Source: Escherichia coli (lineage in GTDB: Bacteria > Pseudomonadota > Gammaproteobacteria > Enterobacterales > Enterobacteriaceae). Taken from it: 64,000 nt of DNA. Each line of letters opens with the position of its first letter. Within the stretch, counting starts at the first letter, position 1. Positions 47,301 to 53,300 of this stretch are shown here, piece after piece. The position numbers are program-made. The DNA lies in assembly GCF_044324875.1 (NCBI RefSeq), contig NZ_CP172186.1. The stretch is one strand, 5' to 3'.

Positions 47301-50300
47301 GCAATTTGTTCCATTGCTCCAAAGATTGGCTGTACGCCAGAGACCCTGCGTGTCTGGGTTCGCCAGCATGAGCGGGATACCGGGGGCGGTGATGGTGGGC
47401 TCACCACCGCTGAACGTCAGCGTCTGAAAGAGCTGGAACGCGAAAATCGTGAACTGCGCCGCAGTAACGATATCCTTCGCCAGGCTTCCGCTTATTTTGC
47501 GAAGGCGGAGTTCGACCGCCTCTGGAAAAAATAATGCCACTGCTGGATAAGCTGCGTGAGCTGCAGTGAGCTGCATATTGCCCCGTCAACGTATTACCAC
47601 TGTCAGCAACAGCAGCATCATCCTGATAAACGCAGCGCCCGTGCGCAGCGTGATGACTGGCTGAAGAAAGAGATACAGCGCGTATACGATGAAAATCACC
47701 AGGTGTACGGTGTGCGTAAAGTCTGGCGTCAGTTGTTACGGGAAGGTATCAGAGTGGCCAGATGCACTGTGACACGTCTTATGGCGGTTATGGGTTTTGC
47801 CGATGTTCTCCGGGGTAAAAAGGTCCGCATTACCGTCAGCCGGAAAGCCGTTGCCGCAGGCGACCGCGTAAACCGTCATTTCGTGGCAGAACGTCCTGAC
47901 CAGCTGTGGGTGGCTGATTTTACTTACGTCAGCACATGGCAGGGCTTTGTTTATGTGGCGTTCATCATTGATGTGTTTGCCGGATACATCGTGGGATGGC
48001 GGGTCTCCTCGTCCATGGAAACGACATTCGTGCTGGATGCACTGGAGCAGGCGTTGTGGGCCCGTCGTCCATCTGGCACCATCCATCACAGCGATAAAGG
48101 CTCTCAGTATGTATCGCTGGCCTACACGCAGCGGCTTAAGGAAGTCGGATTACTGGCATCAACAGGGAGCACAGGCGACTCGTATGACAACGCGATGGCG
48201 GAGAGCATCAATGGTCTTTACAAGGCGGAGGTAATACACCGTAAGAGCTGGAAAAACCGGACAGAAGTGGAGCTGGCTACACTCACGTGGGTGGACTGGT
48301 ATAACAATCGACGATTGCTGGAAAGGCTGGGCCATACTCCCCCGGCAGAAGCAGAAAAAGCTTATTATGCTTCCATCGGAAACAATGATCTGGCAGCCTG
48401 AGTTCACAGACAAAACATTCTCCAGGAAACCCGGGGCGGTTCAATATGGATACCAGCTGTTCACTTCCAGAGCGGGCTGTTACCCGCTCTGCGTCATGTT
48501 GCCGCCAGCGGGCGACAGATCGCCCGCAGGGCGACGGCGCTGCACAGCGGAAACAGCGCCAGCAGAAGCCAGGGATAAACCGCCTGCGGCGACGGAATGA
48601 GCGCCTGGTCAAGTAAATGACCGAGCAGTAAATTCCCGGCTAACACCGCGCACCCTCCTGCGGTGGCGAGCGCTCCGTAGTGGGCGCCCAGCGTCGACTC
48701 CTCGGCGAACAGCGGGATCAGATCCTTGGCTGCGGGCACTAACAGCATCTGGCCGAGGGTGAGCAGCGTGACAAAACCAGCCGCCGGCATTAACCGCAGC
48801 CAACTTTCGGCGGGTGGGGCGGCGGCGAATAACGCCACGCTGGCAAAGGAAGCCGACAGCAGCAGAAAGCCCACCGGCAGGATGCGCACGGCGCCCATTC
48901 GCCGGGCGAAGCGGGCGAGAGGGAGCTGGAGGGTGATAATCAACAGCGAGGCCAGCATAAAGAGCGGCGCCAGATCCTGCTCGCGGCCGCCGGAACGTTG
49001 GATCTCCACCGGCAGAGCGAGGTAGAGTTGGTTGTAGCTCAACAGCCATGAGCTGTAGGCGAGAATAAACGCGACAAAGCGCGGCTGGCGCAAAGGCGTC
49101 CACCATGGGACTCGTCTGCGCGTTGTTGTCGTGTGCCCGTCGGCGGGCAGACCGAAAAAGAGCACCGCCAGCGCCAGAAGAAATATTCCCGCGCCGGCGA
49201 GGGCGATATGTCGAAAGCCGATCCCGCTCAGCACGCCTCCGGCCACCGGGCCGATCACCGCTCCCAGTTCACCGCATACCGCAAACAGCGCAAACCACTC
49301 GGCGCGGCTGCGTTTCCCGTTGGCCTGGCTGTGGGTACCGGCCCGCGCCAGCAGGGCCTCTATCGACGGGGAGAACAGGGCGCCGCCGACGCCGGTCAGG
49401 CAGGCGCCAAGGATAATGGCCCACAGCGACGCCCCGCACGCCAGCAGGAGAAAACCGGCGACGCGAACGACGCAGCCGGCGAGAATGATCGCCTTAGCGC
49501 CATAGCGGTCGGCCAGCGTCCCGCCGAGGATAAACATCCCCTGTTGGGAGAAGGTACGCAGCCCGAGGATCAGGCCGATAAGTCCGCCTGAGAGCAGCAT
49601 GTCGTCGCGCAGGAAGAGGGCGAGGAAAGGTACGACCGCGTAAAAGCCAATATTAAAAACGAACTGGCTTCCCAGTAACACCGGAGGCCAGAGGGTTGCC
49701 GCAGGGCGCAGGGAGAAAAGAGGCATATCCGCCCAACCTAAACGATGAAATGAATGTGCTTTTTGCCGTGGTAAGGGGAGATCTCGATTTTGGTTTTCAC
49801 CCGGAAAACGTCCCACAGCAGCGCTTCGGACAAAATCTCCTCCGGCGTCCCGCTGGCGAGGATCTGCCCCTGCTGCATCACGATCAGCGAATCGCAGAAC
49901 ATCGCGGCATGGTTAAGATCGTGAATGGCCACAATGCTGGTTACCGGCAGCTCGCTGATCAACTGCATTAACTGCATCTGATGGTGTATATCCAGATGGT
50001 TGGTCGGCTCATCCAGCAGGATTTCGCTCGGGCTCTGCGCCAGCGCGCGGGCGATATGCACCCGCTGCCGCTCGCCGCCGGAGAGGCTTAACCATCCCTG
50101 TTCGCTTTTCTCCAGCATCGCTACCCGCTGCAGCGCGGCGGCAATCGCTTCGTCATCCTGAGCGCTCCAGTTTGAGAACGGAGAGTGGTGGGGAATGCGT
50201 CCCAGGCGCACGACGTCGCGCACCCGCATATTGGCCTCGGTCATGCCGTGTTGCTCGACGCAAGCCACGCGGCGGGCGAGCTGCTTTTTCGCCATCCGGG

Positions 50301-53300
50301 CGATATCCTGGCCGTCGAGGGTGACGCGACCTGCATCCGGGCGGCGCAGGCCCGCCAGAACGCGCAGCAGCGAGGATTTGCCGCAGCCGTTGGGCCCCAG
50401 CAGTCCGACCGTTTCTCCGCGCGGCACCCGCAGCGAGACATTATTGACGATGACCTTTTTGCCTGCCTTCCAGGTGATATTTTCAGCGCAAATACTCATC
50501 ACTTATTCCTTGAGCGGTAGATAATCACGGCAAAGAAAGGCACCCCAACCAGGGCGGTTACTACCCCAACGGGCAGACTTTGCGGGGCAATCAGCAGGCG
50601 CGACGCAATGTCCGCCAGTACCATCAATATCGCCCCTGCCAGCGCGCTGGCGATCAGCAACGTTCGGTGCAGCGGGCCAAAGAAGAAACGCATCACGTGC
50701 GGCACCACCAGGCCAACAAAGCCGATTGAGCCGGCCATGCTGACGATGGTGGCGGTGATCAGCGCCGCAGTGGTGAAGAGGATCAGGCGCACGCGCGGCA
50801 CAGCAATCCCCAGCGAGGCGGCGGCATCGTCGCCGAAGGTGAACGCGTCCAGCGCCCGGGCATACCACAGGCAGACCGCCAGACCCGCGAGCACCACCAC
50901 GATGACCAACTGGAATTCGGGCCAGCGGACGCCGCTGAAGCTGCCCAGCAGCCAGAACATCACATCGCGCGCCTGCTGCGCGCTGGCGGTGGTGCTGATG
51001 GTATAGGCCGTGATGGCGTTAAATAACTGCGAGGCGGCGACGCCCGCAAGAATCGTACGCTCATTGCCGCCGCGCGCGCCGTTAGTCAGCAAGGCGACAA
51101 AGGCGAAGGCGGCGAAGGCCCCGGCAAAGGCGCCTGCCGAGAGGGAAATTGCGCCAGAGCCAAGGCCCAGCACCACGATCGACACCGCGCCGGTGGAGGC
51201 CCCGGCGGAGACGCCGAGGACGTAGGGTTCGGCGAGGGCATTCTTCAGCAAGCTTTGCAGCACGACACCGCAGATAGCGAGGCCGGCGCCGCAGCAGGCG
51301 GCGACCAGCGCGCGGCTGAGGCGGAAATCCCAGATAACGCTCTCATAGATACGGTTGAGCGGCTCAGCGGTTAAGCCGGTTCTGTTGCTGATAGCATAAA
51401 AGACATTCTGCAGCGGGATGGCCAGCTCGCCAACGCTGACGCCCACAGCGATCACCAGCGCCAGCACGATCGCTGCCAGTACACACCAGCCGGTGAGCAG
51501 TATGCTGCGGCACGTCTCAATCGCGCCGACGCTCATCAGTTCAGCCCCATTTTTCTCAGCTGCTCGCCCACCTGCTCCGCGCCGTAAAGCGTGCGAATGG
51601 TCGGATTCATCGCCTGACCGTCCATGACCACGATATGGCCTTTTTTCACCGCCTCCAGCTGGCTGACGGCGGGATCGCTTTTGAGGAATTTGATCTTCTC
51701 CTCGGCTTTATCCAGCGCCCAGCGGTTACGATCCAGGCTGGCGACCACGATCACATCCGGGTTGGCGGCAATAATGCTCTCCCAGCTCACCGTGGGCCAC
51801 TCGGTTTCGGAGGTAATCGCATTATGTCCGCCCAGCACGCTGGCGATAAATCCGGAGGCGCTGTTTTTGCCGCCGACATAGGCATCGGCCGAAGGTGAGG
51901 CGCTGGAGAACCAGAAGACGAAGGAGAGATCCTTTTTGCTTTTACCAAACTCCTGGCGCAGGTCGGCTTCACGTTTTTTGAAATCGGCAATCAGCGCCTG
52001 ACCACGATCTTCGACGTTGAAAATGCGGGAAAAATCGCTAATTTCCTGATACAGCCAGGTCATATCCCACAGCTTTTGCCGGCTGCCGTACATATCGCCG
52101 GTGGCCTTTTTGGTGGCGCACACCCCCGGTGAGACGTAGCTGTTCACGCCGACGGTGGCGAGATCTTCACGCCTGGCGACTTTGCTTTCCGGCCCCAGCA
52201 GCAGCGGCAACTGGGCGGGAACGAAATCAGGATTTTGCGCCAGCACCGATTCCAGGCTCGGAATTTCCACCGTCAAGGTTTTAATCTTCGCGTTTTGCTC
52301 AGCCAGCTGCGGTAAAACGCTGGTCGGCCAGAAGGCGCTGGCGACCACCTGCTTTTGCAGCCCGAGCAGCAGCAGAATTTCGACCGTATTTTGCCCCAGC
52401 GCGACCACGCGCTCCGGCGGCCGGGTGAAGGTCTCCTGATAGCCGCAGTTTTCAATCGTCAGGGGGTAGGTTGTTGCCAGCGCGGAACTGACGGCGGTGA
52501 ACATCAAGCCTAACGCGCAAAGGACCTTCTTCATTAAACGCTATCCTTGTAAACAGGCGAGTGGATGACCAGCAAATGGGAGTAATGCAAATGAAACTCA
52601 TTATTATCGCGGGGTTTTATACAATGCCATATTTACAGTGTCAATGTGTTCTTGCCCCCTTATTTCCAGACAGGGGTTGTATCTTAAGTTAATGTTACCC
52701 GCTGACGTCGATATTCTCGCGGAGAGCGATAACCCAACGCACTGTGCGGATGGTTTTCATTGTAATGTTCGATCGCCACTGCAAGATTATGCAATGCCGT
52801 TCTTACATTCGGTTTCGGCATGAACGCGATGTAGTCTTCCTTGGGGTCCGCCTGGAAAACGGAAAATATCCCACGCTAAGACTATTTTCTATACAGTAAC
52901 AGTTTGCTGTTTCGCTCTAACTCTCAGAATTGTTTGCCGTGTGGTTCGGAATTCCCTGGCAATAGCACTTATACTTGCCCCAGACTTAATGTGTTCGAGT
53001 ACCTTCTGTTTTTGTTCTTCATTTAATACCGGTGGGCGACCAAAACGTTTTCCTGCATCCCGTGCTCTTGCTATCCCTGAATAAGTTCGTTCAAGTAAAA
53101 GATCTCGTTCAAATTCAGCGACCGCTGAAATCACTTGCATTGTCATTTTTCCTGCCGGACTGGTCAGATCAACACCACCTAATGCCAGGCAATGTACCCT
53201 GATGCCAGATTCGGTCAGTTGCTCCACTGTTTTCCTGATATCCATTGCATTACGACCGAGGCGATCCAGTTTTGTGACTATCAATACATCGCCACTTTCC

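Follow-up and report, generated by a model that had tools for sequence, protein, structure and literature searches.

The eitABCD operon of an Escherichia coli plasmid, its predicted Fur operator and its probable Klebsiella origin

Analysis of a 64,000-nucleotide stretch of Escherichia coli DNA (assembly GCF_044324875.1, contig NZ_CP172186.1; the whole stretch is here called the window) identified the feature at 48494-52608 as the already described transporter operon eitABCD, under which name it also appears in the current annotation. Taken as a whole, it is likely that the operon is repressed by Fur, that it encodes a ferric-chelate importer together with the exporter EitD, and that it was captured from Klebsiella. 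The operon serves as a typing marker for the plasmids of avian-pathogenic and extraintestinal E. coli, and for some twenty years homology has been the basis of its assumed function. The present analysis adds comparative evidence from about 50 species for a conserved Fur operator at the eit promoter, and indications that capture left the plasmid copy with no more than the core promoter, with Klebsiella pneumoniae as the likely donor. The classification of eitABCD is not changed by these additions.

The operon and its products

Four intact reading frames, all on the minus strand, were found at 48494-52534 in the order eitA, eitB, eitC and eitD. The first of these, eitA (51536-52534), encodes a periplasmic class III substrate-binding protein of 332 amino acids (PF01497) with a Sec signal peptide, MKKVLCALGLMFTAVSSALA, read from the translation. 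It is followed by eitB (50499-51536), encoding a FecCD-family permease of 345 amino acids (PF01032, 289 bits), by eitC (49738-50499), encoding an ATP-binding cassette (ABC) ATPase of 253 amino acids from the annotated ATG (PF00005), and by eitD (48494-49681), encoding a transporter of the major facilitator superfamily (MFS) of 395 amino acids from the annotated GTG (PF07690, MFS_1). The Walker A (GPNGCGKS), signature (LSGGERQR) and Walker B (ILLDEPT) motifs of EitC were likewise read from the translation. Both EitA and EitC passed the cut-offs of their NCBIfam equivalogs, NF052484 (696.1 bits against 640) and NF052485 (518.7 bits against 485), respectively. With a PF01497 protein that has a signal peptide, a PF01032 permease and an ATPase with the ABC motifs, Eit is a type II importer of the BtuCD/FecCD type. 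EitB is the product of the sole permease gene, which implies a homodimer.

All four frames are full-length relative to their orthologs. The RefSeq starts are the ATG at 50499 for eitC and the GTG at 49681 for eitD, the latter agreeing with the point where the similarity to the orthologs sets in, and eitA, eitC and eitD are named as such in the current annotation. The original prediction, which had been made from the sequence without database searches, gave the gene order as binding protein, FecCD permease, ATPase and MFS transporter, and this order was borne out by the reading frames and the Pfam matches. As to its limits, 48494 is the end of the eitD stop codon, and 52608 is the first base of the Fur-like 19-mer that it had proposed.

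The DNA at 48300-52900 (4601 bp) is 100% identical to positions 86666-91266 of the plasmid pAPEC-O1-ColBM (NC_009837.1), and at least 80% of it is present in 222 plasmid records. Together with the equivalogs passed by EitA and EitC, this identity confirmed the earlier proposal that the genes correspond to eitABCD of ColV/ColBM-type virulence plasmids, known from pAPEC-O1-ColBM as well as pAPEC-O2-ColV (Johnson et al. 2006, cited by PMC3251573 and by PMC2797631). In pAPEC-O1-ColBM the same four genes lie in the same order and in the same insertion sequence (IS) context on both sides, and no difference was detected within the operon.

The frames of eitA and eitB, and also those of eitB and eitC, overlap by 1 nt, which suggests translational coupling, and a gap of 56 nt separates eitC from eitD. 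Within this gap a weak terminator-like hairpin was observed (49721-49734, minus strand), with a stem of 5 bp followed by CTTTTCTCCC; it might lower the expression of eitD relative to eitABC. Just past the eitD stop codon there is a stable hairpin, CAGAGCGGG-taaca-GCCCGCTCTG (48466-48489, minus strand), without a T tract. The fold of this second hairpin has an energy of -22.1 kcal/mol (z = -3.4), and it lies inside the segment common to K. pneumoniae.

The promoter and the Fur-like operator

Judged by sequence and conservation, eitA is probably transcribed from a sigma-70 promoter, TTGACA-17-TATAAA, with a predicted start site near 52609. The -35 hexamer TTGACA (52639-52644, minus strand), read from the sequence, and the -10 hexamer TATAAA (52616-52621, minus strand), located 17 nt past it, had mean column identities of 0.79 and 0.84, respectively, in an alignment of the 149 bp upstream of eitA from 27 species. 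The Shine-Dalgarno sequence AAGGA (52544-52548, minus strand) lies 9 nt before the ATG of eitA and belongs to the conserved block GAAGGATAG.

A Fur-box-like sequence had been proposed 55 bp upstream of the first gene, and the proposal stood up in position, score and conservation. The 19-mer then given, GATAATAATGAGTTTCATT, extends from 52608 to 52590, ends 55 nt before the ATG at 52534 and agrees with GATAATGATAATCATTATC at 12 of 19 positions. When the register was shifted by 3 nt (52605-52587), the agreement rose to 14/19 on the plus strand and to 13/19 on the gene strand, and the plus-strand 19-mer of this register, GCAAATGAAACTCATTATT, was the best one found. The candidate operator thus delimited (52587-52605, both strands) begins 10 nt past the -10 hexamer (52621-52616), downstream of it, and it includes the core palindrome AATGA-N3-TCATT (52590-52602), which occurs only once in the window.

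The score of 14/19 was the highest in the window when both strands of the 64 kb were scanned, and three positions reached it. Chance gave a score of at least 14/19 in 1.6% of random 300-bp pieces of the window and in 0.7% of shuffled versions of the 160 bp upstream; of 2765 pieces of 160 bp matched for GC, none reached it. The promoters of iucA, fepD/entS, iroN, fepB/entC, fhuA and fepA/fes are textbook cases of Fur control. Under the same scoring they reached 17, 16, 15, 15, 14 and 13, respectively, and cstA, used as the negative control, reached 10; iroB was left out of the positive controls, having only 11/19 within 300 bp and a promoter that probably lies farther upstream. The eit score falls within the range of 13 to 17 given by these proven Fur-regulated promoters, which supports the reading of the element as a genuine Fur site. 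Yi et al. (2010, PMC2797631) have already predicted both a Fur site and the TTGACA -35 box for the same promoter as carried by plasmid pKF3-70.

Further support came from a scan of one genome per species, which detected 80 loci with a relative of EitA. Enterobacterales account for 52 of them, at 71-99% identity, and alpha-proteobacteria, chiefly Rhizobium, for the other 28, at 65-70% EitA identity. For most of the loci in Enterobacterales, the same element gave the best Fur match in the 300 bp before eitA, mostly at -50 to -80, with scores of up to 16/19, reached in Rahnella, Silvania, Buttiauxella brennerae and two species of Pantoea. Searching the 200 bp before eitA for a relaxed core palindrome gave 47 positives among the 52 Enterobacterales orthologs (74-90% protein identity) and no positive among the 28 from alpha-proteobacteria. 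In rhizobia the iron genes are under RirA and Irr and not under Fur, and alpha-proteobacteria make no use of Fur in iron control (PMC8822346); the lack of the relaxed core in all 28 loci fits this.

The 27-species alignment was diverged except for four conserved islands, namely ATTGACAC, TGTATAAAA, the Fur-like element and the ribosome-binding site. All six invariant columns of the alignment fall in the Fur-like element. The mean column identity was 0.90 in the core and 0.84 in the 19-mer, compared to 0.79-0.84 in the promoter hexamers and 0.44-0.62 elsewhere. By its consensus score, its position overlapping or abutting the promoter and its conservation in species that use Fur, the element has the sequence characters of a Fur-regulon operator, and eit would belong to that regulon.

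Some candidates were rejected in the course of the promoter analysis. The only site returned by the promoter scan, ATGGCA-16-GATAAT (9/12), belongs to a class of sites that was no commoner in the region than in shuffled sequence. The scan missed TATAAA because its rule requires a T at position 6, and TTGACA-17-TATAAA was preferred because of its conservation across species. An IS remnant that ends close to the -35 hexamer was considered as the source of that hexamer and dismissed, since ATTGACAC is present also in chromosomal orthologs that have no IS; the -35 hexamer is native. In the leader of eitA, the Rfam search found no cobalamin riboswitch or other element.

Elsewhere in the window, the Fur consensus was matched at 14/19 by two identical sequences (CATACTGAGAACCTTTATC) and at 13/19 by a variant of them, at 16789-16807, 34099-34117 and 48093-48111. 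The match at 48093-48111 lies within the orfB of the IS3-family element adjoining eit. Those at 16789-16807 and 34099-34117 are probably copies of the same IS-borne sequence, and all three look like repeats, not like Fur sites.

Another conserved motif, TGA-N9-TCTTG, was observed in 27 of the 28 alpha-proteobacterial loci (L057-L084), about 70-116 nt upstream of the eitA orthologs and around -80. About 20 nt past it follows GGCTATA, and its TCTTG overlaps a -35-like CTTG. The strict RirA motif TGA-N9-TCA was detected in none of the 28 upstream regions; TGA-N9-TCTTG is one base off this motif, and variation among sites bound in vivo has been noted (PMC8822346). In this lineage, which lacks Fur control, the motif may serve as an operator that responds to iron.

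In two Enterobacterales genomes eitA itself was interrupted: in Pantoea dispersa DSM 30073 by a stop after codon 155 (locus L025, 9001-9465) and in Pantoea eucrina LMG 5346 after codon 86 (locus L054, 9001-9258). These are either pseudogenes or assembly errors.

Origin of the segment

The segment of 4.19 kb at 48459-52649 is bracketed by IS3-family sequences. On the eitD side it adjoins a complete IS3-family element (47153-48444, plus strand) with terminal inverted repeats of 26 nt (47153-47178 and 48419-48444), an orfA (47208-47534) and an orfB (47556-48401); IS629 was named at this position by Mellata et al. (2012, PMC3251573). On the eitA side lies a 196-bp remnant of the 3' end of an IS3-family (ISEc48-like) transposase gene (52647-52842, minus strand), the translation of which gives the C-terminus of an integrase core. 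The remnant stops 2 bp upstream of the -35 hexamer, and what the plasmid copy retains is in consequence limited to the core promoter and the operator, with nothing farther upstream.

Similarity to the chromosomal orthologs extends from 52644-52649 down to about 48500. The nearest chromosomal copy was that of K. pneumoniae ATCC 13883, in a context free of IS elements; it is 98.7% identical over 4191 bp (52649-48459 in the window). There the operon has a methionine-synthase-family gene downstream and, upstream, the end of a reading frame read as LysR-like. The same context was described for two other Klebsiella chromosomes, those of MGH 78578 and strain 342 (Yi et al. 2010, PMC2797631). What the window and the K. 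pneumoniae operon have in common includes the promoter, the Fur-like core and the hairpin past eitD, but the K. pneumoniae operon lies between ordinary chromosomal genes with no IS. The two also differ just upstream of the core, where the hexamer GATAAT (52606-52611) is specific to the plasmid lineage, and CCCAAT stands in its place both in the Klebsiella chromosome (locus L005, 8924-8929) and in Serratia rubidaea, with the core box unchanged. The identity and the context together make K. pneumoniae the probable donor of the plasmid copy.

The composition of the segment agrees with the earlier observation that its GC content is above that of the flanking genes. The G+C content of the operon is 0.620, against 0.447 in the left flank, 0.490 in the right flank and 0.504 in the rest of the window, and G+C at third codon positions (GC3) is 0.73-0.80 in the operon genes. 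The operon is also the highest-GC stretch of 4 kb in the window. The orthologous operon has in its native hosts roughly the G+C content of its surroundings, so the high value reflects the donor genome and is not a property of the genes. The foreign origin that had been read from the GC content was borne out more directly by the IS3-family borders and the chromosomal copy of K. pneumoniae.

Among 5,426 complete E. coli genomes the segment was found in 218 (4%), at altogether 229 places, 224 on plasmids and five on chromosomes. None of these copies falls below 99% identity, in agreement with a single recent capture and subsequent spread, and they are found on many different plasmid backbones.

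In the draft genome of K. pneumoniae ATCC 13883, eitD appears as two open reading frames of 139 and 254 amino acids (locus L005, 11719-13040) with 99% protein identity. Also a resistance-nodulation-division (RND) pump gene beside this locus is split. This suggests frameshift errors in the assembly, or real decay.

Proposed function and genetic surroundings

As criteria for an antiporter, motif A was sought in the loop between transmembrane segments 2 and 3, and motif C, G-x3-G-P-x2-G-G, in transmembrane segment 5. Both were found in EitD (GTLADRYGAK and GAVIGPVAGG, respectively), which places it in the DHA type (drug/H+ antiporter); among 39 orthologs, motif A was present in 36 and a motif C-like sequence in 32. 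The likeness of EitD is to MdtH and to NorA and YajR, its nearest solved relatives. It is not MdtH itself, the model of which gave 119 bits against a cut-off of 469, and a relationship to the ShiF-like MFS protein encoded next to iucA was also rejected (E = 2.3).

The gene eitD follows eitC in most of the Enterobacterales loci; Rahnella, Serratia rubidaea, some Pantoea and all the alpha-proteobacteria lack it in the vicinity of eitABC. The 'eitCBAD' locus of Cronobacter (on plasmids of the pESA3/pCTU1 type) and the Kosakonia/Franconibacter-type loci are orthologous, with about 73-77% EitA identity and the same A-B-C core. In six loci of the latter type, eitD lies upstream of eitA in divergent orientation, and the two genes share the intergenic region that bears the Fur-like box. 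The name eitCBAD would fit this divergent layout; Cronobacter was compared by this published name only. The persistent linkage of the genes argues for a functional link between EitD and EitABC.

Ferric enterobactin is imported by FepDGC, next to which the MFS exporter EntS is encoded divergently, and the bidirectional promoter between them is controlled by Fur. Eit resembles this system in coupling a FecCD-type importer to an MFS exporter with a Fur box on a common control region (16/19 in fepD/entS). It differs in having one permease gene and no neighbours for enterobactin functions, whereas fepDGC includes two different permease genes and lies among the enterobactin biosynthesis and receptor genes. 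Based on the antiporter motifs and on the analogy with entS, EitD is most likely an exporter.

According to the preferred interpretation, the operon would be transcribed from the sigma-70 promoter TTGACA-17-TATAAA, and Fe2+-Fur would bind the operator about 10 nt past the -10 hexamer, covering the likely region of the start site and obstructing RNA polymerase. Sequence and conservation predict that ample iron leads in this way to repression of the operon and a shortage of iron to its expression. EitA would be exported to the periplasm, capture a ferric chelate and dock on a type II importer of two EitB and two EitC, through which the chelate would pass into the cytoplasm with the use of ATP. 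The co-transcribed EitD may export a chelator or the spent ligand, as the analogy with entS next to fepDGC suggests. The plasmid copy would have been captured from a Klebsiella chromosome with its core promoter only.

The grounds for the label 'iron-type' are the family resemblance and the conserved Fur-like operator, and in reviews EitABC is listed as a ferric-chelate transporter by homology (PMC3852070). Several observations weigh against the interpretation. Mellata et al. (2012, PMC3251573) observed no eit-dependent signal on chrome azurol S (CAS) agar and, in dipyridyl medium, no eit-dependent gain in growth, whether or not FeSO4, haem or haemoglobin was added. The searchable literature yielded no experiment on Fur binding or on iron-dependent expression of eit. 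No TonB-dependent receptor or siderophore biosynthesis genes were found within 9 kb in any of the 80 loci, nor any adjacent to eit in the window, and in consequence the interpretation leaves the outer-membrane step and the ligand unexplained. Finally, the solved proteins nearest to EitA, both by sequence and by fold, are structural-genomics proteins without an assigned ligand, and the next tier of relatives mixes binders of haem, catecholate, hydroxamate, B12 and molybdate.

The comparison by fold was made by Foldseek with an AlphaFold2 model of EitA (predicted local distance difference test score 85.6), which placed the protein among the cluster-A binding proteins. The nearest structure was 4MLZ from Jonesia denitrificans (E = 1e-39, 32% identity, TM-score 0.76-0.84). 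Whether synteny gives a clue to the ligand was also considered. The operon of Enterobacter-type genomes lies between the gene of an FhlA-like activator, next to the hyp genes, and ygbA-mutS, and in Rhizobium its neighbours are unrelated to iron; the conserved neighbours are housekeeping genes, and the clue was rejected. Neither the neighbourhood nor the structure points to a substrate.

In the most probable of the alternatives, E. coli plasmids carry the operon as a silent passenger, intact and perhaps regulated by Fur, but useless without its natural ligand or receptor and hitch-hiking in an IS-bounded block. We consider this possible, though rather unlikely. It would agree with the missing iron-uptake phenotype (Mellata et al. 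2012, PMC3251573), with the lack of a linked receptor, with the tight IS borders of the segment, with the recent spread indicated by near-identical copies in only 4% of the complete E. coli genomes, and with the two interrupted eitA genes of Pantoea, which indicate that loss is tolerated. Against it stand the four frames, intact and full-length compared to the orthologs, the promoter and operator, which have been kept, and the spread of the segment to many different plasmid backbones. This alternative concerns the usefulness of the operon in E. coli and not the identity of the system, and it is compatible with the preferred interpretation.

A more speculative version of the function, to which we give little probability, is that Eit is a self-contained shuttle for the export and reimport of a small chelator, either an ordinary metabolite of the cell or a compound supplied by plants or soil. 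If so, EitD would export the chelator in iron starvation and EitABC would return the ferric complex, and neither dedicated biosynthesis genes nor an outer-membrane receptor of its own would be needed. Such a shuttle would account for the missing neighbours, for the flexible but persistent linkage of eitD, for the occurrence of the operon in plant-associated Enterobacterales and rhizobia, and for the failed siderophore and haem assays.

Equally improbable, in our estimation, is a non-iron substrate, that is, some other cofactor-like or metabolite ligand, with the palindrome bound by a regulator other than Fur. The best non-Eit models for EitA, EitB and EitC were indeed TIGR03868, TIGR03869 and TIGR03873 ('putative F420-0 ABC transporter'), with 174, 285 and 283 bits, but these scores, from less than half to about three quarters of the cut-offs (392, 437 and 372), are far too low for membership, and the family name is itself a hypothesis. 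These models and 4MLZ, an unassigned actinobacterial protein that could also be cited for a non-iron ligand, give no functional information. Use of F420 is not known from Enterobacterales. The missing iron phenotype and the lack of a strict RirA box in the alpha-proteobacterial orthologs would agree with a regulator and a ligand unrelated to iron, but the Fur consensus has this palindrome as its central core, and the element reaches up to 16/19 in several species, scores like the proven sites and sits where repressors act.

Very unlikely is an importer for haem (HmuTUV type) or for vitamin B12 (BtuCDF type): ShuT, HmuT, BhuT and BtuF are among the structural neighbours of EitA and there are partial NCBIfam matches, but all of them stay below the cut-offs (haem ATPase 232.5 bits against 261, IsdE 35 against 299, BtuF 27.8 against 234, BtuC 220 against 461), the lack of a cobalamin riboswitch or other Rfam element in the leader argues against B12, no haem receptor or haem-degrading genes lie nearby, and neither haem nor haemoglobin gave the eit-bearing plasmid a growth benefit (PMC3251573).

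Outside the operon, the window could not be equated with pAPEC-O1-ColBM as a whole. The match to that plasmid is limited to 39368-59963, the rest being a different mosaic backbone, and PLSDB held no record with the whole window. The best matches of the first 25 kb were other IncF plasmids of avian E. coli, which carry a cluster of fdrA, carbamate kinase and cytosine permease genes and also sugar-utilisation genes (carbohydrate porin, GH32 and alpha-galactosidase). Directly left of the IS element adjoining eitD lies an autotransporter gene of 1165 amino acids (43564-47061, plus strand; G+C 0.415, GC3 0.33), annotated only as 'autotransporter outer membrane beta-barrel domain-containing protein'. 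A resolvase-type recombinase gene (52889-53479, minus strand) and a toxin-antitoxin pair of the ribbon-helix-helix and ParE families (53980-54539) lie on the right side of eit.

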